Under the pieces are notes generated by a model. The model did not search any database. It was given only the letters and a program-made list of their open reading frames with translations, and was not told the origin of the DNA. Shown here one piece after another: positions 11,035 to 62,280 of a DNA stretch of 64,000 bases (positions are counted from its first letter, which is position 1; each line of letters begins with the position of its first letter). A program made the position numbers and the translations under genes. Origin of the DNA: Euglena gracilis (taxonomy: Eukaryota); assembly GCA_039621445.1 (NCBI GenBank), contig CP154954.1, positions 44,185,847-44,249,846 of the forward strand, written 5' to 3'.

Positions 11035-11423
11035 GCGCGCACGTACGCACGCGTGCACATGCACACCCACACCCACACAACACACACACACACACACACA
11101 CACACGCCCACACCCACATACGCACACACACACATACAACACACACACACACACACAACACACTGACACACACACAACACACACACACACACACACAACA
11201 CACACACACACACGCACACTCACACACACACGCCCACACCCACACCCACAGCCACCCACCCACCCACCCACACACACACACATACAACACATACACAACA
11301 CACTGACACACACACACAACACACACACACACACACATGCAGGCACGCACGCATGCAGCACGCACGCGCGCACACACACGCATGCACACACACACAACAC
11401 AGACACACACACAGACACACACA

Positions 11424-11479
<56 letters not shown>

Positions 11480-11500
11480 AACACTCCCTCCACACACATG
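11035..11500. repeat. Imperfect (CA)n microsatellite
   Basis: Seen directly. Similar CA/TG tracts at about 26336-26470, 28943-29045, 31567-31730, 49565-50256, 50857-51350, 54418-54660, 56748-57030 and 63588-63790. Confidence 0.95.
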
Positions 11501-11574
11501 TGCACGCGTACAGGGACAAGCGCGCGGACGGAGACAGCACGCACGCACATGATGCAAAGGGGGGTGGACGCTGG

Positions 11575-13044
11575 TTGTTCCGGGGGTGGGGGTGACGGGG
11601 GGCCAGGAGGGCCAGGCAGGCAGGCGGCGGGCCAGCCACGCTGGCAGGAAGCCCCACAGCCAGGTGGGGCGGTGCCGGGCGAGAGCGGCCACCTCCTCGG
11701 CCCATGCGGACTGCAGGGCGCTGCGCTCCGTCAGGGCGAGCTGCAGGAGGGCCTGGCGGGCGACGGCGACGCCAGGGCTGAGCGGAGCGCTGTGGGGGGG
11801 GGGGCGCTTCACTTCCACGTTGAGGCGGGGCCCATTCAGACCGAGACCCCGCTGACTCCCGGCCTGGTGCGGCAGAACGGGAGTGCCCGTCGGACACACC
11901 ACCGCTTTTCTTTTCCTTTCTTGTTTCCTTTTCTGGCTTTCGGGGGGGTCGACTAGGACTGGCTGAAAATGCCCCCCCCCCCCCCCCCCCTGCTGGAACT
12001 TGTCTGGAATCTTTTGCAAAAAAAAAGACTTTGATTTTGGGACAAGTGCCAGAGCGGCCGACGGGCGACTGGTTTTTGAAAAATGTCCCACCCATAAAAA
12101 GGTCGAAACATTCGCAAACCTGGAGCACCATTTGCAGACATCAACACCACAAACCCACACGTGGGCACCATCACAGGCTCTGGGTGTGTTCTTGGACGAT
12201 GCGCAACTCCGGTAAATACTGCTCGATGCGATTTCTGTTGCAACGCCTTGGCTCCATCATAATCCCCCCCCCTGACCAAGATTGCCACCAACATGCAAGG
12301 TTGTACGCTCCCCCTAACAACCATCCAAAAATGTCTCCCTCCAATGCCCCTCTTTGACCAATTGATGACCAAAGAAGCAGATTGTAAATTGGAATAACTC
12401 TCCCCAAGGTGCCTTGTAACAAAAAAAAAACCAAAAAAAAAAACAGGAAAGCGCGCCCCTGTTTAACCAATTTTCAAACACATTTTGCCAAGTTCAAGGT
12501 GAATGACGGACAAGACACAGATAAGGAAACAAGAAGAGGAAGAAGAAGACTACTGACGGCATATTCCATCATTGCAGTTGGATATATGATGACCCCATAT
12601 AAACGACACCGCATTTCTTGCCGGTGATTCCCCATCGGTATCCGGCGGGCCTTTGACCAGAACCATCTGGAGTCGTGGGGAGCATCCAGCAGGCACATTT
12701 CAGGAGGGATTTATTATTTGGCTTAGCTGGTGCGAACGGTGCGAATTGCACAACCGTTTTTTTTTGGCGGTTTTGACCACCCCCTAAAACGGCCCAAAAT
12801 TGTCCAGATTCACGAAATTTATTTGGGAGGGGTGTTTGGGCGAAATGCTCGACCTCAAAAAAAAGCACCCAAAATGCAATTTAAATAAATAAAAAATACA
12901 CAACTTCTGTAGTTTTGGCACTTTTGACGTTTTATTTGACGTTGAATTTGCCTCAATTTTGTTGTAGCGATGTGTCCCTTTCAGAGAGGGAAATTGAAGA
13001 TTTTCCACCCTGCTTGATTCCTTCACAGGCATGTGGCAGGGGGA

Positions 13045-13080
<36 letters not shown>

Positions 13081-13219
13081 CATGCATGCATACATGCATG
13101 CATGCATGCATGCATGCATGCATGCATGCATACATGCATACATACATACATACATACATACATACATGCATGCATGCATACATACATACATACATACATA
13201 CATACATACATACATACAT

Positions 13220-13252
<33 letters not shown>

Positions 13253-14088
13253 TATATATATATATGGCAGCAGGATGCGTAATGGCGGGGGGGGGGGGGG
13301 GGGGACGCATTTCTGGGGGGTGGGCATGGCAGCTCCCAGGTTCGACTTTTCGGATTTTCAGTCCCGCGGTGCTGACAGGTAATCCCCGGAGATAAGGCCG
13401 AGATTTAGCCCCAAATTAAACCCCCCCAAATAAGAACCCCCCCCCAAAATGTGACCCCTCCTGGGCCGATCGAGCGAAAATCCAAAACAAGACCCCCCCA
13501 AAAAACAACACCCCCCCCCCCGACGGAGACAGTGTAAATTTTCCTTGAAGAATAATCAAAAACTCCAATGTGATACACAAAAAGATGATAAAATTTCATT
13601 TTTTTTTCAAATTTTGAAGCTCAAAAAAAAACATGCCAAATGTCAACTTACACCAATTTACACATGGCGCGAAGCGTAGAAGGAAAAAAAGTTTCAATGG
13701 TTTTGGGAACCTGTAAAATTATGGGGATTTCGGGCCCGGGTCGGCCAAGAAAAAAATCAAAGTACGACCACGCAACGGACCTGAAAATGAGACCCGGTTT
13801 TAATTTGGGGGGGGGGTTGAGACCTAAATTCAGGCTTTCATTTGACCTAAATCACACCTAACTGCCAAAAAAAGAACCGCAACCCTGACCCTAGCCAGAA
13901 TCTTGTCCCATCTCAGAAAAAAAAATACAAGGCTTCACAATAGCCGAAGGGAAAAGCATGGGGGTCCTAGAAAACCACCTCCCAAATTATTTACCCCCCT
14001 CCAAAATATCCTGGTATTTTGGATGCCGTTATAAATTTATGCACACACATAAAACACACACACACACATACATACATACATACATACA

Positions 14089-14163
<75 letters not shown>

Positions 14164-17100
14164 GCTGTATATATATGGCCCCCCGGGGGCATTGGCGGCC
14201 CGCGGGTCCGACTTCGGGGGCAGTCGGGGTTATTGGTTGGGATAGGGTCAGGGTTCCGACCGCGCTCCTGGCTGATCCCATTTTACGGACTTAGAAATAG
14301 TTAGGTCCCGATTCGGACCGAGTTGGGCAGAATTTCGGTTGGATTTTGGTAAAATTCTGAAGAACTACGACCCCAAAATCTTTCAAATGGGGACTAACGT
14401 CCTACCTAACTTGGTTCCTAAATTTGGCCAATTTCTGTTTCACCAATCCTGACATTATTCCGAAAAGTAAACGAAGTCCTCCCCAAATGCAACGAAATTC
14501 GCCCAGATTCGCCTTGGTTCCCCCCCCCCGATTCTCATTTTTTCGTGATTTTCGGTGCACGGAAAAACAATTTGGTTTGGCCTCCTTGCATATTTTTGCA
14601 ACATTTTTACTGCATCATCATCTGGCATCTGAGTTTTGGCACAACGGATCGTCGGACCAAAAAAACAACACTGGGGGAGCCCAGGTGCGGGCGCGATGGG
14701 TCCAGTTGGGGTGGGTCTGGAGGTACTCCGCCCAGCGCGAAGCAGTCGCCTCCCCGTCCACCTCTGCTCGTCGCTCGCACAGTGCCAGCATGGCCTCAGG
14801 GTCGTACCCAAAGGCAGGACCAACAGCTTCAGCTTGTGGGGGGGGGTCCAGACAAGAGCGTCGTGGGATGGGGTCCAGCAAAGGCTGGAAAAAGCCAGGG
14901 AAGAGTCGGCTGACTCCCCGCCACACTTAATGCCCCCCCAATCAAATCGGACGCGGAAAAATCGAAACTGCAAAATCCTGAAAACCCAGCAAGCCCATGC
15001 AAAAACCTTATTCTGAGCCCCCCCCCCCCCAAAACCTGGGTAGCCCAAATTCCAACCCAACTTTGGCCAACTTTGGAGCCTAAGGTTAAAAAAAAAGATG
15101 AAAACTGATGTTTGGGCGGAAACTGTTGGCTGATCCTCATCCGCATCCATCCTCATTGGGGGTGAGGTGAAAAATGTTCAGCTCAACTGACTTGCAGTTC
15201 AGCCTGGGGGGGGGGGGGCAATTAACCTTACTGTTCGGTCATGGTCAGCCCGTGCAGCAAACAATGCCCCGATGTAATCTGCCTCATACTCCCTCGCAGC
15301 TCCCGTGCATGAAGGAGGGGGGTCTCTGACGGGAGTGCAGAGGATGCAAACAACCATTGCATTCCCACCACCAACACAAGCACAAAACGCAAAGAAGCAG
15401 CCTAAACGCACACACGCACAGACACACAAAACACAAACAGAAATTCGACTTCATGCATTTTGGGGAGCCTGGGAGTAACAAAAAAAAATAATAAAAATAA
15501 AAACATGATTCTCATGATTTTTTTGAAGGGAACTCAAAAATGACGAAAAACTGATGTAAAATATGGTCTCTGGAAATCGGGTCGAAAATGCAGATCGAAA
15601 TATTCTTTGTATCAAAATATTCTCCAGGAAAACCCCAGGAAAGAATCACAACACGGGAAAAAACATGGTTTGTTGCGATGGGGCGGCCAGGGCCTGGTAG
15701 TGGTGCCGCTCGAATGGCAATTCTGTCATGAAGTTCCGCAGCAGCCGAGGCATCGCCACCTCCGTGAAGAACAACATCTGGGGGGGGGGCAATGGAGGGG
15801 CTCACGATGCGAATGATTTTTGCTGGAAGGAATTTGAAAAGCATCATCACAGATTTGCCACATCTTGATGATGGGTTCGACGCATTTTGTACAACATTTT
15901 GGTCTGCCTTGAAATTTTCAAACCAGCGAGTGAGTCCATCCATCAGGAATTTCTTCATTTCGAATTTCTGCGGCAGAGTTTGGAAAAAATGGTTAGCAAA
16001 AATGGAAGGCTGTTTAACGTTCTTGCAACAATTCAAAACATGTTGCGATTTGGCTTCATTTATTTCTCTGGAGCATATCTCCACACTCACTCCCAGTGCT
16101 TTTCATAACATGCATTAACACATTTCAAATTTAATGTGAGTTTCAACAATTTTTGTTCAATCCAATGAATTTTTTGTTTCACGGCTGCCCCCCTATCGGC
16201 AGGACGGATTTAGCAAAAAAAAACCATGCAAATGTGGTGAGATTCCCATTGAACGACTTGAACCACTTGACGTTTAGAAGGAGACTAGGTGCAGCTGTCC
16301 ACCACCACTGCTCTGAACCTGCACCCCTGCTCCAACTCTAGATACCCCTTACCTTTTGAAACAACACAGGTTAAATAAGGTTTGGTTTGGTTGGTCAGCC
16401 CAAAGGGGGACTATATCTCAAGGAGTTGCTACAAAACTCGACCTCCAACATGACCCAAAATACCACCCCAAGGTGTTATTTGGAAGCGAAATCGCACTTC
16501 TTGAGTACGCTTGGGGCACATTCAATATGCAAAAAAATGCGAAAATCAGGATTACTTTTCTTCTATTCTTCGCCGGGGGGGGGGGGACAGTTATCCTTTG
16601 GTTTGGTTGGCACTCAGGGGGGTCGGGAGGTTCAGGGGGAACCTTTGTGGTCATGAACACCTGTTTTCTCCCGATCGGTTCAGACCTGATAGCTCGATGT
16701 GATGTCGGGGACGACGAGGGCCATCGTCCAGAAGAAGAGGTTGACGGCGGCCTGCGTCACGTTGGCGAGCGTCCACCGCTCGTACGTGTGCCGCGCCACG
16801 ACGTGCGCCATCTCGTGGCCCACCACGCACGCCAGCTCGGACTGGCTCTCCACGGCGTGGCACAGGCCCGTCGTGACGAACAGCGCCCCGTTCTGCAACG
16901 CCAGGGAAGAGGAGGAGTGGGAGGACGAGGAAGAGCGGGAAGAGGACCAGTGTGCGGTTGGGGACGGAGGCAGGGAAATCCACCGCTGCTTGGGACGGAG
17001 GGAATGTGCATAACCGCTCCCCTTCTTCCCACAGAATACCCTGTCCCCAGGGTTGTATGGGAAGCTCTGCAGACATGAGGTAGGTGGTAGGGGACGCTGA

Positions 17101-20100
17101 GCTCTTATCTCTTTAGAGTAAGAGCGAAGCTTACCCCTGGGGAAAGGGGGGGTTGGACCCCCCTTGCCTCCCTCCCCCCCCCCCCGGGTCAGGGCCACCT
17201 TGAGAACCGGCGGATTATCACCATGATCCTGGCTCCGTTCCCGATTTTTTTTTTCAGTCGCGAGCGACTGCATTTCTAGTTTCCAAATCACCTCCGTTTG
17301 AGCCCCAACTCCCCGCCAGGCCCGAGTTATTCAACCGCGAAGCGGTCCAAACTGGGTAGGATTGGCCCCACCTCTTCCGACTCTGCCATTTCGCTGGTGT
17401 CCAAAAATCGGTCAAAAAATCGATTTTTCGAAAATATCTCGAGAAAACGTACATTATTTCCGGAAATGTCGGTCTGACGAAATGTACCCATGGAGGCCCT
17501 CTATCGCCCCCCGTTCGCCGTTTTGCCGTTTCGCCGACACGCCTGGCCCGTGTTCCAGCGCGCTTTTGGGGCCCAAACCGGCCATTTTGCGGCGTTTTTT
17601 TTGGACCTTTTTTGGTCTAAAAATCGATTTTTCCAAAATCTCAAAATCAAAGGAAAAGTCCGGATGAACCCCTTGGAATGCCCTATCCAACCATGGTTAA
17701 CTTCCCCCCCAAACTCTTCGTGTAGCCCGAGGCAACCCCCCCCCCCCTTAATAAGTGCGCAGTGCCCCAATTGTGCGCAGTGCCCTAATAAGTGCGCACC
17801 TCCCAAGGGTCCGAAACTACCTCCCTAAAAAAGTGCGCATCCCCCCCAATGGAGAAATCACTGTCACATCTCAGGTCGGAAAGCGCATACAATTGTCAGA
17901 ACCGTCCTCCTCAGACCAAATATTTCTATCATCCAAGCCCAAATTTGACACATAATCACTTGACTCAGAGCTTGAAATCACAAAATAGGGGGAAATTGAA
18001 AAAGAGTGGGGGAAATGTAAGTATTTTCGGCTTTATCCTAAAAAGTGCGCACTGCCCTAATAAGTGCGCACCCCTTGGGGTGCGAAACTACGTCCTCAAA
18101 ATGCGCGCCCCCGTGCACTTATTAGGGGGGGGGGTTACGACCATTTTCCGGCCAATTTTGGCCCATTTCAGGGGCCATTTTGGGCCGTTTTTGGGGTCAA
18201 ACAATCGATGATTCCAAAATAGCTCGAAAATGACGCAAAATCAAAGGAAATGTCCGGAGACCTAATTTGAAGCCCTTAAAAGCCCTATCTAACGGAACTT
18301 TGATTTCCCCGCAACTCCCCGCCTCGCCCGAAATATGGCCGATTTACGGCCCAAAACAGCCGGCAGGCTTGCGACTTTGTCGTTTTCGGCCTCTTTTCGG
18401 GGGTCAAAAAATCAATTTTCTAAAATTGCTCAAAAATGGTGGGGAATCAAAGGAAATGTCTGGAGACCTATTTTGAAGCCCTTAAAATCCTCTATCTAAC
18501 AGTGCTTTGATTTCCCCGCAACCATCTGCCCAGCCCGAGTTACGGCCATTCTTTGGCCAATTTTGGTTATTTTGTACAGTTTTGGCCTGTTTTGACTTAG
18601 CCATTTTCGGCCATTTTTGGGTGAAAAGTAGAAAAAATCCAATTTTTTTTTGCCCGAAACGATGTTTTTTGGCCTCCCGGACCCGAAAAACCTATTTCTC
18701 GATTTTTTTCGACTTTTTTGACCCGGTTTTGACCAAAATCAATGGATTGGTGGCCCAAAACGGGGCGCTGGCGGGTCGAAAAACGTCCATTTTCGGCTCA
18801 AAAACAGTTTTTCCGGGTCCGGGAGGCCAAAAGACATCGTTTCGGGCAAAATTTTTTTTCGATTTTTTTTCGACCTTTTTGGCCAAAAACGGCTAAGTCG
18901 AACAGTGGAAAAAGTGTACAAAATGGCCTAAATTGGCTGAAAAACGGCCGTATCTCGGGCTGGGCGGTGAGCTGCGGGGAAACCAAAATCCCAGTACATA
19001 GAGCGTTCCAAGAGCTTCAATTTAGGTCTCCGGACATTTCCTTTGATTTTGCATCATTTTCGAGAAATTTTGAAAACATCGATTTTTTGACCCCCCCCCC
19101 CCGAAAACGGCCAAGTCAGACAGTGGGAAAAATGTACAAAACGGCCATCTGGGCCGAAAACGGCCGTATCTCGGGCTAGGCGGGGAGTTGCGGGGAAATC
19201 AAAATACCGGTAGATGGGGCGTTCCAAGGGCTTGAAATTAGGTCTCCGGACATTTCCTTTGATTTGGCTTCGTTTTGGAGATATTTTGCAAAAACTGGTT
19301 TTTTTGGCCAGGGGTCGCCAGGGGTCAGCTTCGCTCTTACCCAAAAAGGGATAAGAGGTCAGCGACCCCCCCCCCAATACACCCCATACTCATTTTGTTG
19401 GATTTTTTCAACATTTTGACCCAGTGTTGACCCAAATTCCATGGGTTTCGAGCCAAAACCGAGGCGCTGGTGGGTCGAAAAATGCTCATTATCGGGTCAA
19501 AATCAGGTTTTCCGGGTCCGGTGTGTAATTAGTAGTAAATTAAAAATTACGCGAAATTTGCAATGCTAGTCTTTCGGCCTTCCATTACATGCAAGTCCCA
19601 TTGTGAGCTCAGCACTGTTCAAAACCTGGTCACCCCCTCCAGGGGGGTAAGGTGGGGGGGGTCACCCCCCCCCCTAGTTTCGGAAAAGGGGTCCCCCCAC
19701 TCCCTCCCCCTCCTCTGCAGGGGCAAAAAAAAATTTTCCGGCACTTCACGCCAGGTGTGTATTTTAGGACCCCCTTGAGGCTCAGCATGAAATTTTGGCA
19801 AAATGGCCAAAAATGGCCATAACTCGGGACAGGCGGGGAGTTGTGTGGAAATCAAAATACTGTTGGATAGGGCATTTTAAGGGCTTCAATTTGGTTCTCC
19901 TGAAATTTCCTTTGATTCCTGACCAATTTTGACCCAAAAAACGGCCGAAATTTTCGGCGACCGAAAACTGGAGGTAGGAGGGGGGGTCCCCCCACACCCC
20001 CCTGGTTTTGGAGGGGGGTCCTCCCCCAGAGATTCCCATACAACCCTGCCCGTCCCCACAAAACAATGCCATAATCCAAACGGTGCAGACACAAGAACAA

Positions 20101-23100
20101 TATACAAACAAATTAAATACAAAATACCACAAAAATACAAAAGAATGCCCAGACAGAAGAACTGCCCAGAAGCAGTCTTCACCATGGGATCACAGGCCTT
20201 GACCAGAGGGGGGCACCTGAAACGAGCATGCGTTGAACGCCTCGTCACGGATGAAATGGCACGACCAGCTCCGGGACCGCAGTTCGGGGGACCCGGCCAC
20301 CAGCCCATCCAGGATGGTCCGCAGCGCCGCGGAGGAGGCCTGCGGAGGGTCCACCACCTCCTGCAGCGACGTCTCGTACGCCTCCTGGACGATCTCGTCC
20401 ACTGCCCCGAAGGGGGCACTTTGATGCAAAAACAGATCTTAAAGGAGAAAACAAAAGGCATTGTTGTGGATATACGTCGTAGTGTTTGTGTGTGTGTGTG
20501 TGTATGTTTTGTGGTGCGTGAGTGTGTGTGTGTGCGCGCGCGTGTGTGCATGCGAGTGAGCACATATACAAATATCTACAAATGCACATTTCTGTACCTG
20601 CATGTTTCGGAATATCCACCGATGTGTTCTCAAAGAGGTGGGCAGGCACTGGGAGGCTTCGGCTGCAAAGGGGTCCCCCGGCGCAATCTCCCAGCTGGCC
20701 AGCCACGTCATCTGCCAGCGGCCGGTGACCGGGACCAGGCATTATTATTTTTTAAGGCGCCTTAAAAAACCTTAAAAAACCTTAAAAAACCTTAAAATTT
20801 TTTTTGCCAAAATGCCTTAAAAAACCTTAAAAAACCTTAAAAAACCTTAAAAAAATCACCCCGGGGAAGTTTTTCTTCCCCGTGATGACCTTAAAAAACC
20901 TTAAAAATTTTCCCTGGGAAATTTCTTCTTGCAACAAACAAATAATGGCATATCTGAAACCCCGCATAAAGCCAGTCAATGCAGAAGCGGTTGCGAACAA
21001 AATTACATTGAAAAATGAACCCAAAATGTATGGTGGTTGGTTTTTTGATGGAAAATCACATTTTCCCAAAAAAAATCACCAAAATTTTAGGGATGAAAAT
21101 TGTTAGTTTTTAGGAGGGGGGCCAAAAAATGCAGGTCAAAAAAATGGGACCAAATTTTGGAACAGTCAAATTTTACTGACATTTTTTCCCTTGTAAATTT
21201 TTTGGTTTTTAGTGGCATTTTTTTGCTTCCAAAATCTCTCAAAATTAAAAGTTTGAGAAATGTTGATTTTGAGAAAAAATCAAAGATTTCAGGGTTAAAT
21301 TTGGTAGTTTTAGGGGGGGGGTGGAAAATAACGAAGGTCAAAAAAGGTGGACCAAATTTTGGCACAGTCAAATTTTACTGACACTTTTCCTCTGTCAAAT
21401 TTGTTGGATTTTCAATGGCATTTTTCTTGCTTCAAAACCCTCTCAAATTCAAAATTTTGAGAAAATGTTGATTTTTTGGAAGATGTGAAAAATGGGGGTT
21501 TGAGGGAGTTTAATGGCCATTTTTGAGGAAAAAGTTCTAAAGTAATTTTTTGTCATCAAAAAGTGACGTTTTTAAGTTTTTCCAGGCTTTTTTTGTTGCG
21601 TTTTTTTAAAAAAAAACATATTTTTAAAAAAATTGTTTTCTTTCTAAAAAATTTATTTGTAAAAAACTTGTTTCTTTAAAAAAACGTTTTTTTTTAAAAA
21701 AAAACACATGCTTTTTTAAAAAAAATTGTTTCAAAAAAAACAAGCAGTCAACCTTGGCAAGAACCTATGGTCAAGCCCCAACCACCCCGCACTTACCTTC
21801 CTTCCCTTGTGTCCTTCCCGTCGGCTCAGTCACACCACACCCATACCCCCCGGACCTTCCTCCCTACACATCAACAAACAGCCCCAAAACACCACATCAA
21901 GGCGCCGCAAGCAACGCAATCCGGCAAACACCCAGGACGCACACCGCCGGCAGCTCGGACACATCCGGGGACACAGCCGAAAGGAGCAACAGGGGCAGTA
22001 AAGGTCCCGTTCCTATGGTGCTTTTTTGTGTTTTTTTCAGGGTGGGCCGGCAGGGTCCCGTAGGTTTGGGCCCACAAAGTCCTTCCCGACACACCCCAAA
22101 ATCACTGTTTTCCGCCAAAGTCCCGGGGGTCTCCCAGCCAAAATCAGAATTTTGCTCATTTTTTGCACTCTCTTGTTCACGTGTTTTCAAACCCCCCGGA
22201 CCTTCACAGCCGAAACAGAGCACAATCAAAAAAAATCGTAAATTTGCGCAAATGCGCGCATCAAACGAAAAAAGCTTAAGTGCGAATTCGGCCGCCTAAG
22301 TTCGGGTTTTGGACCCGAAATAATGTTTCTGGCGTCTTCGGCGCCGGGTGTTTTTTTTTTGACCCATTTTGGGACCCATATGCAGGAACCCATAGCCAAA
22401 ATGGCCTAAAATTCCTAAAATGCCTTGAATGGACTAAAATTCCTAAAATGTCTAAAATGGCAATAACTGTCCCTCATGGACCGCCCTGATCCCATGCTTC
22501 GCCCGAGGCTTCTTCCTTGGGCGTTCCGAAGCCACAGAAGTCTGAAGCCATCGGGCCATCTTCGGGGTCTGAGATTTTACCTGAGGAAAAAAATGCCTTA
22601 AAAAAACCTTAAAATTTTTTAAAATTCCTCAAAAAACCTTAAAAAACCTTAAAAAACCTTAAAAACCGCCTTAAAATTTTTTGAGAAATCTCGCCTTAAA
22701 AAAAATAATGCCTGACCGGGACCTGGTCCACGTGGGTGTACGCGAAGGCGCCGCCCCCCCCGACGAGCAACGCCCCCCGGAGCCGCTGCGGCCAGCCTTG
22801 CCCCCGGTCGTATCTCTGCCCCGTATGGGCCGACGTGGATCGAGAGAGTCTGGCTGAACGGCAGCAGTCAGCCAACCGAACAACGACTGCTGTGAACCGG
22901 GGCCAAATGGTCGTTGACACGCGCACCAATCTATTCGTATGCAGTGTGTGACTATGCCTGCAAATGTGTGTGCTGCTGTGCGGGATGTGTTTGTGCGGGA
23001 CATGAATTGGAGCAACCTGGGTAAGAGAAACGCTCATGCCCGAAACGAGAAATGTGTGCCTCGGAAAGGAAAGCAAGAGGAGGAGAAATGGAAGGGAAAA

Positions 23101-23821
23101 GCTGGTTGCTTCCCCAGCCGACTGTGGATGAGTTCGGACAGTTGCCGCTGTCTTTCTCTGCAGGCACCATCCTGTCTGGCTCGAGGCCCCAGAAGACAAA
23201 AAAAAATGGAGGGCTGCCGGGACCATTCCCCCCTCCAGCACCGCACTCCACCTTCTAGGAAACAATACATATGAAACAAATGCCAAGAACTGAGGGAGAA
23301 GATAATAAACTACTCTAAAGACCAGCCAAAAAAAAACAACCAGCTGTCAAAGCGACTGCGAACATTTCCTGGTGGTCAACCCTCCCCAACTCTGGACTCC
23401 AATTTCTTTGGTGAATTTGGGCTTGGCAGCAGCTGTGAATCACAAACTGGTGTTGGCCGACGGCCAACCTGTTGGAAAATGTTTGGTTTGTAGAGCACAG
23501 CAGACCACACCCACCTACCCCACCCACCCACCAGCCGCCCACACATGCACACGCACACACAACACACACATGCACACACATGCACACACCAGGGCTGCAA
23601 GCGGGAGGGCGACCCCCCCAAAAACCACGGCAGGGGGTGGTAATCGCCTGCCTGGGGGGAGGAAAAAAGAAAATCGACGAGGGAAACCAACCACCGGGGG
23701 TTGACAAAGGAGGGGGTGTATCCGCAGGAGGGGGGGATGGGGTAACAGGATGTTGGGCCCCCGCCACAAACCACGCCCAGCGGCTCACCTTGAGCAGGCC
23801 GAAGAAAATGGGCGGCGGCAT
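11575..23821 (-). CDS. OMA1: Peptidase M48 family zinc metalloprotease, OMA1-like (about 10 exons, 3' end not fixed)
   Basis: Exons: 23821-23789 (MPPPIFFGLLK), 22815-22718, 20730-about 20688, about 20402-20217, 16892-16686, 15777-15700, 15291-15247, 14809-about 14690, about 12232-12186, 11767-about 11575. Motifs in M48 order: YTHVDQVPVTGR, FNACSFQNGALFVTTGL, ELACVVGHEMAHVVARH (HEXXH), LPFERHHEYEADYIGALFAARAGYDP, YLQTHP, RIEQYLP. Confidence 0.88.
11768..12185 (-). other. Non-conventional intron in the M48 gene
   Basis: CAC|ACC-CAGAGCCTG ... CAGCCCTG-GCGTC|GCC; joins VQEH to AVARQALL in frame. Confidence 0.65.
13045..14170. repeat. Two compound (TACA)n/(TA)n microsatellites, both followed by ATATGGCAGC
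   Basis: Tracts at 13045-13265 (also containing (TGCA)n) and 14042-14159. Confidence 0.9.
14810..15246 (-). other. Non-conventional intron, CAT variant of the 5' triplet
   Basis: GCT|GAC-CATGACCGAACAG ... CTGTTGGTCCTG-CCTTT|GGG; restores the M48 motif ARA/GYDP. Confidence 0.75.
15292..15699 (-). other. Non-conventional intron
   Basis: CAC|TAC-CAG ... CTG-CGAGG|GAG; restores LPFERHH/EYEADYIG. Confidence 0.8.
17048..20048. mobile_element. 3.0-kb composite non-autonomous hAT-like element inside a GT-AG intron
   Basis: TIR CAGGGTTGTATGGGAA(G/T)CTCTG (21/22 match); flanks CCTGTCCC 17040-17047 and CCCGTCCC 20049-20056 (7/8 match). The interior consists of copies of an approximately 280-bp repeat in both orientations. 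Confidence 0.85.
17731..18139. mobile_element. Nested inverted-repeat element with AAGTGCGCA motifs
   Basis: Ends AAC(C)nTAATAAGTGC / GCACTTATTA(G)nTT. It interrupts the host motif GCCCGAG-TTACG, which is intact at about 18533-18544. Confidence 0.6.
20736..22714. mobile_element. hAT-like non-autonomous element inserted in coding sequence; forms intron 2 of the M48 gene
   Basis: TIR CAGGCATTATT..TTTTTAAGGCG / CGCCTTAAAA..AATAATGCCTG; perfect TSD ACCGGGAC at 20728-20735 and 22715-22722; (CCTTAAAAAA)n arrays near both ends. Confidence 0.93.
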
Positions 23822-29035: not shown

Positions 29036-30355
29036 ACACACACAAACAAACGACGTGCCACGACGGCAGCGCGCACACACCCCTGAGCGACGTCGCGGCC
29101 CTCCACGCCCAGGATCTTCGGCACGCTCGGCCCGCAGATGTCGACGTCCAGGATGCCCACGCGGTGCCCCTCCAGCGCGAGGGTGAGGGCCATCTGGCAC
29201 GCCACGGTGCTCTTCCCCACGCCCCCTGTGCCCCGCGGGAACCCCACGGATGGCCCCGACACCAGTCAATGCCGGGTTGGGTGAGCGGGCGACACACAAA
29301 GCGTCGCGACGGAGGGGGAACGACACGCAAGGCACTTTGCTTGGTGAACACCCGAAGGTGCACTTGCTGGGCCCTGGGAAACTGTCACCAGACAAGTCAG
29401 GGAGTACAGCGGTTGGTGACAGGTCCCTCCCTGTGTGGACAGATCAGCGAGTATGGGACCGGAGGACAGTTTCCCGGGGGGGGGGGGTGGATCAGAGGGA
29501 AAAACTGACATTTGACCCCCCCCCCCAACCGACACAAAAACCCGAGAATTCGGGGTTTCACATATTTGTGGTCAGAAGCCAGATGAAAATGGAGGAATTT
29601 TTTTTCAACTCAGGAAACATGCTTTTTTCAACAAAAAAAGGTGAAAATTCTCAAAAAAATATGGTCAGTGGGTGCAAAGGTTGGTGACAGGCTCCTATGA
29701 GGATGGGTTCGTGGGTACAGAGGGTAGAGGACAGTTTCCTGGTGGGGAGAGTTTCCCCGAAGGGGAAGGGGTGGGTATCATAATGTCATGAACGACTATG
29801 AATGCATTTGTTAATATGTCAATTACCACAAAAAAACCAAAAAGACCCCATAATTGTTAGAAAATCTTCATTCCTTCCTTGGTGCGTTCAGAACATAAAG
29901 AAAATTAACTGCACACCCTCCTTATCTCATCCCGCCTCACCCCACTTCACACTATTCCCTTCTACATTCATCCAATATCCCGTACGGAAAAATCTGTTCC
30001 ACTTTTTTTTGGGTCAGCAGGATGTTTGGAAGCAATGGAGCCTTCTGACGGAAAGCGGTTGGTGGGGGGGGGGCGGGTTCTGGTTAGCGGTTTCGCAGAA
30101 CAAACCAGCAGAGAAAACGAGAATCCATCCCTGCCGGGGGGCGGCGGGCACGGCACACCAGGGTTCGATATAAGGAGAGGGGGGGGGGTGGTCCGGACCC
30201 CCCCCCCCTGCGGGCCAGGAGGGGGGGGGGGGGGGCACCCCCCCCCACCTAAACCATGTACGCCCTCCTTATATCGAACCCTGCGGCACACCCTTGCCGC
30301 TCAGCACCAGGACCACGTGCTGGATGAGGGCCATCCGGGCGGCCAACTCGTCCAT
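24707..30355 (-). CDS. NUBP2: Cytosolic Fe-S cluster assembly scaffold Cfd1/NUBP2 (10 exons)
   Basis: Exons: 30355-30292, 29225-29081, 28818-28789, about 28231-28104, 27097-26999, 26563-26519, 25830-25737, 25381-25293, 25201-25157, 24841-24707. Motifs: [81 protein letters not shown]. The short N-terminus lacks the Nbp35 Cys cluster. Frame at the start of exon 4 is unresolved. Confidence 0.93.
24842..25156 (-). other. Non-conventional intron with a relic TSD
   Basis: CGC|GGC-CAG ... CTG-GGGGC|GGC. The 8-mers outside the CAG...CTG core are GCCGCGGC and GGGGCGGC (6/8 match). Confidence 0.8.
25382..25736 (-). other. Non-conventional intron splitting the CPHC motif
   Basis: GTC T|GCG-CAGCGGGCC ... 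GGCCCCGCTG-GCCCC|GC CCG CAC TGC. It contains a copy (about 25440-25640) of the repeat that fills 17048-20048. Confidence 0.88.
26663..26852. mobile_element. MITE with TA flanks (Tc1/mariner-like)
   Basis: TA-CCCCCCCCCTGGGCGCTTGGCCC ... GGGCCAAGCGCCTGGGGGG-TA. Confidence 0.65.
30159..30283. mobile_element. 125-bp hAT-like MITE at the first splice donor of Cfd1
   Basis: Perfect 19-bp TIR CAGGGTTCGATATAAGGAG; perfect TSD CGGCACAC at 30151-30158 and 30284-30291. Confidence 0.95.
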
Positions 30356-30999: not shown

Positions 31000-61711
<30,712 letters not shown>

Positions 61712-61968: not shown

Positions 61969-62280
61969 CATGCTTGTGCTTACCGACCGGGGGGGGGAGA
62001 GGGGTGGGTGGGTGCTATAGGGTGCCTGCCCCTAGCAGGCACCCCCCCGGGGGGGGATAGGGGTCCGGGCCGGACCCAGAAAATTTTCATTAAAAATGGC
62101 CTTTTCCGGGCCCCCGGCGCCAAAGGCGCCGGGGTTGGAGGGGGGTGCCTGCTAGGGGCAGGCACCCCCCAAAACCCTACCCCCCCCCCCCCCGCGGGGG
62201 GGGATCGGGTGCTATGGGGTGCCTGCCCCTAGCCCCCCCCCCCCCCCCGTGGGGCAGGCACCCGACTGAGCACAAGCCTG
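61969..62280. mobile_element. 312-bp hAT-like MITE
   Basis: TIR CA(T/G)GCTTGTGCT; perfect TSD ATTCCAAT at 61961-61968 and 62281-62288. Confidence 0.9.

Follow-up and report, generated by a model that had tools for sequence, protein, structure and literature searches.

The closest described counterparts of the structure reported here are the nonconventional introns of euglenids, which have no GT-AG borders and are marked by CAG/CTG pairing continued into an extended helix, by a purine after the intron and by 'slidable' repeats at the junctions (Milanowski et al., 2014, PMC3935182, and 2016, PMC4770533; PMC12501133; the papers cited by identifier in this text are drawn on in excerpt). The structure itself is a 1979-bp insertion with terminal inverted repeats (TIRs) in an M48 peptidase gene of Euglena gracilis, within a stretch of 64,000 nucleotides (assembly GCA_039621445.1, contig CP154954.1, positions 44,185,847 to 44,249,846), hereafter the window, to which all coordinates refer. 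In contrast to the published introns, the predicted intron here coincides over its whole extent with an identifiable TIR element that is highly repeated and bounded by an intact 8-bp target-site duplication (TSD). We regard it as probable that the whole explanation holds, from insertion to splicing, and that the element is both a transposon copy and a nonconventional intron; the TIR/TSD anatomy, the repetitiveness of the element, the fit in one register, an mRNA-type contig free of the element and the colinearity of an orthologue were observed directly, while the splice code and its sufficiency in knock-ins were taken from the literature (PMC12501133). As an intron it is of a known kind, and it is of value as a concrete instance, probably a recent one and perhaps polymorphic, of an intron that coincides with a transposon copy.

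The splice code of these introns has been defined by knock-ins in E. gracilis as the signature 5'-N3CDG-/-CH'GN5-6|R, in which the 5' spacer does not tolerate a change of length and the 3' spacer tolerates one additional nucleotide (Nomura et al., 2025; PMC12501133). Pairing behind CAG/CTG is required, about 12 bp of it in the design rules, and in E. gracilis precise splicing was seen for five of five 50-bp inserts that were fully artificial and followed these rules (PMC12501133). The code as given in the original prediction for this locus, with CAG at +4 to +6, CTG at -8 to -6 and a purine next, agrees with PMC11282704 and PMC12501133. Natural nonconventional introns reach up to several thousand nucleotides (PMC11282704) and are released as circular RNA with full-length ends (Guminska et al., 2021, as cited in PMC11282704), and in Euglena agilis they account for 71.8% of the introns, junction repeats being present at 84.4% of all introns (PMC12501133).

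A transposon origin of these introns has a history of its own. Descent from MITEs (miniature inverted-repeat transposable elements) was proposed in 2013 in a paper stating that no transposable elements were then identified in euglenids (PMC3935182), and a 2024 review, which considers a MITE origin likely, draws the introns with TIRs (CAG/CTG at +4 to +6 and -8 to -6) and 'TSD-like' repeats in its Fig. 3D (PMC11282704); the MITE-like origin that the original prediction gave as proposed before is on record. The excerpt of PMC11170887 only mentions the hypothesis, and PMC12501133 and the diplonemid paper PMC12621601, both of 2025, call the origin unclear or plausible. In the excerpts of PMC12501133, PMC3935182 and PMC4770533 it stands as a hypothesis with no element family named, and in the literature outside supplements and subscription papers we found no work that identifies the two spacers of 3 and 5 nt with an 8-bp duplication, nor any transposon family named as the source of euglenid introns, an absence that is itself weak evidence. 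According to these excerpts, the MITE origin, the TSD-like repeats, an eight-nucleotide repeat at a new intron and the 3 + 5 spacers are already published. To a hypothesis repeated from 2013 to 2025 without a named element, an intact TIR/TSD copy that is at the same time a code-perfect intron adds a concrete example.

The most similar single case is intron 4 of gapC, a nonconventional intron limited to E. agilis strain ACOI 323, which likewise has eight-nucleotide direct repeats at its junctions; the repeats were read as the footprint of double-strand-break repair, and the excerpted report gives neither a TIR family nor a copy number (PMC4770533). MITE-derived introns of Fritillaria borealis and Amoebophrya resemble ours in being non-GT-AG with TIRs and TSDs at the junctions, whereas their TSDs are of 3-5 nt and a modified spliceosome is thought responsible for their removal (PMC11282704). 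In the introners of Micromonas, Aureococcus, dinoflagellates and others, short non-autonomous DNA transposons likewise became introns and the TSD supplies part of the splice geometry, but those introns are spliceosomal, with GT/GC-AG or relaxed variants, and the TSD supplies one splice-site dinucleotide (PMC11282704). The 1979-bp element, in contrast, has no spliceosomal register, and its TSD supplies two unpaired spacers beside the TIR helix. It works like an introner and is not a member of that group in the spliceosomal sense. Insertions of the maize hAT element Ds in exons, which also make 8-bp TSDs, are reportedly spliced from transcripts through sites inside the element and usually imprecisely, as Giroux and colleagues are said to have described in 1994. 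Both insertions are exonic with 8-bp TSDs, the 1979-bp element being a candidate hAT-type one, and both leave the RNA (that of the 1979-bp element by prediction), whereas the geometry of the 1979-bp element predicts a scarless product.

Element anatomy and the register of the predicted intron

The 1979-bp insert is a non-autonomous TIR element. It occupies 20736-22714, with no strand assigned, and is flanked on each side by ACCGGGAC (left copy 20728-20735, right copy 22715-22722), a perfect 8-bp TSD by direct reading of the sequence, so that the element with CAG...CTG TIRs and 8-bp TSD described by the original prediction within the motif HVDQVPV/TGR is what the sequence contains. The left end begins CAGGCATTATTATTTTTTAAGGCG and the right end, reverse-complemented, is CAGGCATTATTTTTTTTAAGGCG, the two being identical except for one additional A on the left; sequence comparison thus gives a left TIR of 24 nt (20736-20759, plus strand, starting CAGGCATTATT) and a right TIR of 23 nt (22692-22714, minus strand), both with a CAGG start. 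The TIRs cannot be extended outward, and the length of the duplication is therefore set by the TIR ends at 8 bp. The 11-mer CAGGCATTATT has exactly two exact matches in the window, which are the two ends of this element, and six matches when up to one mismatch is allowed, against 1.18 expected and with none of 100 shuffles reaching six.

The GC content of the element is 36-50%, with an A/T-rich interior (36% GC in 21001-22000) that contains, besides an internal duplication of about 202 bp (21072-21210 / 21274-21412), an A/T stretch that is palindromic. Inward of each end follows an array of a 10-bp unit, CCTTAAAAAA, which makes up a repeat family (D2) of 12 members: seven are in the left array (20759-20911) and five in the right (22596-22669), and both arrays have the same plus-strand orientation and are not inverted. 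The longest reading frame of the element (223 amino acids, 21628-22299) had no match in Pfam, and an Rfam search of the whole window returned none.

The public sequencing data listed for one organism comprised 24 runs, of which 14 were DNA-type, six were guessed to be RNA and four were raw RNA-seq; four of the 24 (X1, X18, X21 and X22) were used. In one of the DNA runs, X1, the word depth was 3.1e5-1.1e6 in the nine bins lying wholly inside the element (20856-22647), and 176.7 and 185.2 outside it (20184-20407 and 22872-23095, respectively), more than 1000 times the flanks, although depth of this kind is not copy number. Partial relatives with 74-87% identity occur in the window at 39341-39711 and 40403-40732. 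A metagenome scan with the TIR pattern found 120 loci with a single match each, only five of them with an A/T-rich spacer and none continuing like the element, which points to chance.

These features bear on the reading given to the gapC intron, by which the insert would be filler DNA captured during double-strand-break repair and the 8-nt repeat its footprint. This is how an 8-nt direct repeat was interpreted at a nonconventional intron of recent origin (PMC4770533), but repair predicts repeats of variable length and no inverted termini, while here TIRs of 23 and 24 nt stop exactly at the duplication, the element sequence is highly repeated in the DNA runs, and the same duplication length recurs in the window at three unrelated CAGG-ended elements (125, 1290 and 3001 bp). 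We consider an origin by repair very improbable.

Removal of the element leaves room for several junctions. The full direct repeat is 11 nt on the plus strand, TGACCGGGACC at 20726-20736 and 22713-22723, rather than 8 nt, because the flank by chance shares TG with the right TIR end and C with the left TIR start, so there are 12 registers in which 1987 nt could be excised. Exactly one of these, register -5, has the form N3-CAG/CTG-N5|R, reading GGT-CAG ... CTG-GTCCC with G as the next base, and it corresponds to a nonconventional intron at 20731-22717 on the minus strand, the very register proposed at the outset and the sole one that fits the published code. GT/GC-AG ends occur in none of the 12. 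In the minimum free energy fold of the intron with 15-nt flanks (2017 nt, -619.5 kcal/mol) the TIRs pair over about 23 bp with one bulge. The absence of GT/GC-AG ends, the three nucleotides before CAG, the five after CTG, the purine next and the pairing of the ends are thus all present, and the only difference from the artificial knock-in inserts of PMC12501133 is length, 1987 nt here against 50 nt there. The element has every cis feature known to be sufficient and length is the sole departure from the inserts already tried, so splicing of the filled (insertion-bearing) allele is likely on the strength of its sequence.

A quite different account would have the ordinary spliceosome remove the insert through cryptic sites, or would regard the whole anatomy as chance or an assembly artefact. 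Two introns of the same M48 gene are indeed ordinary GT-AG introns (intron A, 16893-20216; intron D, 15778-16685), but the lack of GT/GC-AG ends in all 12 registers speaks against spliceosomal removal, and a repeat-driven mis-join would not leave the two halves of a codon with a duplicated 8-mer on each side. This account seems to us hardly credible, and further evidence on chance is given with the other elements of the window.

Our explanation of the locus would run as follows. A non-autonomous cut-and-paste DNA transposon with CAGG...CCTG TIRs would have inserted into a coding exon of the M48 gene, and would thereby have duplicated 8 bp of target sequence; the TIRs would pair with each other in the pre-mRNA, and the machinery of euglenid nonconventional introns would cut 3 nt upstream of CAG and 5 nt downstream of CTG, before a purine. 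The element and exactly one TSD copy would then be removed and the mRNA would return to the sequence it had before the insertion. When the TSD is written as t1-t8, the code cuts after t5 of both the upstream and the downstream copy, the excised segment consists of t6-t8, the element and t1-t5, and the exon is restored because the sum of the spacers, 3 + 5, equals the length of the duplication. The orientation of the element is irrelevant, since its reverse complement again starts with CAG and ends with CTG, and the ACCGGGAC duplication has, in both orientations, the purine that is further needed at t6 on the coding strand. The claim that the spacers are a split TSD and that removal leaves no scar is thus supported in its geometry, by the sequence and by the published spacers, and in its second part, the splicing of the filled allele, it describes an expected event.

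Several steps of this explanation go beyond the geometry: transcripts of this very allele would be spliced in the code register, an 8-bp staggered cut by a hAT-like transposase presumably made the duplication, and the rule that 3 + 5 equals the TSD may be general. In its broadest version, which we put forward tentatively, at somewhat less than even chances, the explanation makes both spacers of the code, of 3 and 5 nt, the halves of one TSD, and nonconventional introns, about 70% of the introns in a sequenced Euglena, largely fossils of one class of CAG...CTG-ended, hAT-like transposons with 8-bp TSDs. If it is true, the RNA would lose every such insertion in a transcribed exon without a scar, whichever its orientation, provided that the sixth TSD base is a purine, the copy described here would be an ongoing and still polymorphic intron gain, and there would be a handle on the splicing machinery, which would measure from an RNA helix as the staggered cut of a transposase measures from the TIR. 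Equality of the spacer sum with the TSD length is, besides, a simple rule that predicts the genome-wide length distribution of junction repeats and would explain why such insertions are tolerated in exons.

The interrupted M48 gene and its orthologue

The gene hit by the insertion encodes an M48 peptidase on the minus strand; the element falls within one of its codons, between flanks that read ...HVDQVPV / TGR.... The catalytic exon of this gene (16686-16892, minus strand) contains HEMAH and matches Peptidase_M48 (PF01435) with an E value of 4.6e-11. VPVTGR is not within the Pfam match but upstream of it, and its conservation rests on an orthologue, P0002, and not on the Pfam model. This orthologue, found by a search with exon 16686-16892 (67% identity over that exon), is a protein of 397 amino acids from a 1288-nt contig that its source names a Zn-dependent protease.

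Around the insertion site, P0002 reads ...RIDR VPVNGRWRVLWLSDGEIA TIDSIVQE... and the exons of the window read ...HVDQ | VPVTGRWQMTWLASWEIA | AVDEIVQE..., abutting without gap or overlap. On the minus strand, the upstream exon (22718-22786), ending ...GGGGAFAYTHVDQVP, is supported by P0002 and by record 9 of run X18, which covers 22713-22786 with 0 differences; a downstream micro-exon, VTGRWQMTWLASWEIA, at 20682-20730 is supported by a gap of 44 letters in the same record, by the frame and by colinearity with P0002; and the next exon (20217-20405) is placed by the record and by the gene model. That model, of nine exons, was built from contig pieces, loose contig ends and tblastn with P0002. 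It encodes 286 amino acids without a stop and aligns to residues 11-297 of P0002 with a single gap of one residue.

Reading frame and homology agree on what has to be removed. Taking out 1987 nt preserves the frame, taking out only the 1979-nt element causes a frameshift with a stop, and taking out the element with both repeat copies (1995 nt) also shifts the frame; removal of the element and exactly one TSD copy therefore restores the conserved protein. The exact restoration of codons predicted for removal of 20731-22717 is borne out by the frame, and, as to the intron-less orthologue that was to be looked for, P0002 is colinear across the insertion site. The types of intron, the agreement with the Euglena code and this orthologue are also our grounds for taking the host to be a euglenid. 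A search for a full-length protein of the host organism with exon 20217-20405 as the query gave 86 candidates, none with E <= 0.001.

Transcripts, DNA contigs and the question of an empty allele

The region 16600-23300 was aligned with the raw RNA runs X21 and X22, with contigs of X18 (guessed RNA) and with DNA contigs of X1; positions 20474-20553 were skipped in the read alignment because of a microsatellite. Record 9 of X18 (1227 nt) matches 16686-16892 (record positions 496-702), 20217-20405 (703-891) and 22713-22786 (936-1009), and its first skip is a GT-AG intron, from which we take the record to be derived from mRNA. The 44 unlisted letters between record positions 891 and 936 are an exact fit for 20682-20725, with the frame and the colinearity with P0002 kept, so the element is missing from this contig, which is joined as predicted. 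Of the outcomes that the original prediction named as refuting it, among them an untranscribed locus, none was encountered; as for the junction that it expected to see in RNA, one transcript-like contig has it, and that contig does not come from the haplotype of the window.

The last point belongs to a group of observations that weigh against the element being an intron in this allele, or against the generality of what it suggests. The window has T at 20229 and C at 20262, where the X18 contig has C and A. Raw RNA reads are mixed, with C at 20229 in 4/6 reads of X21 and 6/10 of X22 and A at 20262 in 5/8 and 1/12, respectively, and the X1 DNA contig carries a third combination at the two sites; at least three haplotypes or gene copies are expressed, and the X18 contig is not from that of the window. 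Moreover, a 120-nt DNA contig of X1 (record 5) spans 22713-22832 and starts at the first base common to filled and empty sites. Its end at 22832 immediately precedes 22833, a position heterozygous in this run (C at 73.2 of a depth of 199.9), and X1 contigs therefore break at allelic differences. The break at 22713 likewise fits a mixture of filled and empty alleles, and this one contig suggests that the insertion is heterozygous or polymorphic in the X1 sample. Among the joints listed (15 of 281), all but two are supported by the repeat-rich DNA run X1 only. In addition, the window holds no second full-length copy of the element, and the TSD length of its TIR family, which further copies were expected to settle, consequently rests on one copy, the agreement coming from other CAGG-ended elements in the window with 8-bp duplications. 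Finally, the 8-mers beside CAG and CTG, which agree at 8/8 positions in the element, agree at 5/8 and 1/8 in two older code-conforming introns of the gene, values from a small sample that are compatible with a decayed TSD and neither support nor exclude it.

From these observations one could argue that the insertion is a polymorphic unspliced allele, null or decaying, and that the source of the intact mRNA is an allele or gene copy lacking the insert. The start of the X1 contig exactly at 22713, in an assembly that breaks at allelic differences such as 22833, and the differences of the X18 contig at 20229 and 20262, with both states of each site among the RNA reads, are what such a view would lead one to expect. 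On the other hand, the insertion carries in full, in one of 12 registers, the code that sufficed for five of five artificial inserts (PMC12501133), and the T of the window at 20229 does occur in RNA (2/6 reads of X21, 4/10 of X22), although other haplotypes may share this T. Besides, an empty allele and splicing of the filled allele are not mutually exclusive. We hold the unspliced allele to be unlikely and retain the reading of the element as both transposon copy and intron. The intron gain at this site is probably recent, and polymorphism of the site, if present, would make filled and empty alleles a natural pair for following intron gain in progress.

RNA reads also align inside the element, where at variant positions they mostly carry a letter other than that of this copy: at 20952 in 4/4 reads of X21, at 20994 in 5/5 of X21 and 4/4 of X22, at 21964 in 3/3 of X21 and 5/5 of X22 and at 22397 in 4/4, and at 22029 only in 6/8 and 1/4. 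RNA reads within the element therefore come mostly from other copies.

As a separate observation, a peak of raw RNA depth lies at 18616-19287 within the large GT-AG intron (in X21 up to 11.8 + 9.3), where the reads are 95-99% alike. At 19172/19173 many of them are clipped (X21, 12 + 7; X22, 8 + 13) and run on into unrelated sequence. The signal resembles that of a dispersed repeat that is expressed and has a fixed junction, and not that of M48 mRNA.

Other CAG-ended elements and introns in the window

Pairs of TIRs starting with CAG were collected under a stringent rule (an exact 7-nt seed and at least 12 of 14 positions), which gave 19 in the window; three have an unambiguous exact 8-bp TSD, one has 7/8, and one lies in poly-G and is unscorable. 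Under a relaxed rule there were 151, with exact flanking repeats of 8 bp in three, of 7 bp in one and of 5, 6 or 9-11 bp in none. When only the 109 pairs with non-simple flanks are considered, three agree at 8/8 at the true offset, while eight of nine shifted controls have none and the ninth (shift -1) has one, this sole case being the 7-bp repeat read one base over, and a chance origin of the anatomy is hard to reconcile with such counts. Partly decayed 8-mers showed no excess beyond the exact cases among these 109 pairs (seven with at least 5/8; shifted controls, 0-7). Elements with CAGG ends and 8-bp duplications thus form a real class in this genome.

One of them is a 125-bp MITE at 30159-30283 (30151-30291 with its TSDs), whose TIRs agree at 19/20 positions and start CAGGGTTCGATATAAGGAG, with the perfect 8-bp TSD CGGCACAC. 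On the minus strand it directly follows the exon ...VLSGKG of a gene for a P-loop ATPase of the Mrp/NBP35-like type, the next exon of that gene (GGVGKST...) being near 29223, and the duplicated 8-mer of the MITE, GTGTGCCG on that strand, copies the GT donor of the intron. We considered this MITE (E2) as a second transposon that is an intron and rejected it, since it lies 8 nt inside a GT-start intron and the base after the code register is a pyrimidine.

The 1290-bp element, at 52330-53619 (52322-53627 with TSDs), has TIRs that start CAGGCACCTA and agree at 12/14 positions, and the perfect 8-bp TSD CCTGGGGG; a stop-to-stop frame of 401 amino acids through it (52469-53671) had no Pfam match. 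The 3001-bp element, at 17048-20048 (17040-20056 with flanks), has TIRs of 14/14, CAGGGTTGTATGGG, and flanking 8-mers that are 7/8 alike; its place is within 16893-20216, a GT-AG intron of the M48 gene, and its interior is taken up by other dispersed repeats. A 463-bp element at 41995-42457 also has TIRs of 14/14, CAGGGATGGATGGG, and sits in a poly-G run where the length of the duplication is unreadable. A further TIR pair, at 39257-40816, starts CAGGGCGGTCC, agrees at 13/14 positions, has no matching duplication and encloses the two partial relatives of the 1979-bp element at 39341-39711 and 40403-40732, so interior modules seem to be shared between elements with different termini. The pair at 62036-62225, starting CAGGCACCCC, is flanked by an exact repeat of 7 bp, CCCCTAG, which grows to 8 bp when the element is made to start one base later, and it is the sole non-8 case among the CAG-start pairs.

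As regards classification, hAT elements have the terminal motif YARNG, and the start of the 1979-bp element, CAGGC, has four of its five positions, the other elements of the window starting CAGGG or CAGGC. The 8-bp duplication, the CAGG start and the subterminal repeats make an assignment to hAT a lead only. The suggestion of a hAT element in the original prediction is thus favoured by TSD length and terminal bases, and finds no counterpart in a transposase, as nine of the 249 window frames of at least 110 amino acids, scanned against Pfam, matched none of its families.

The M48 gene has eight resolved introns: the two GT-AG introns given above, three that conform to the code and three nonconventional ones outside it. 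Besides the intron formed by the element, the conforming introns are 22787-23106 (AAC-CAG...CTG-GCCGC|A) and 15292-15699 (TAC-CAG...CTG-CGAGG|G), the latter placed by homology only. The three that do not fit, 23160-23758, 20406-20681 and 14810-15246, have helices nearer to or farther from the junction; in one the helix is right at the junction (CCGGGGG... / ...CCCCCTTCGGG), and in two, helices of the CAG/CTG type stand off from the junctions by 6-11 nt, with the order reversed to CTG...CAG in one case. Long microsatellites of the types (GT)n/(CA)n and (CATA/TACA)n occur in or beside introns at 11200-11700, 13000-14250 and 20474-20553.

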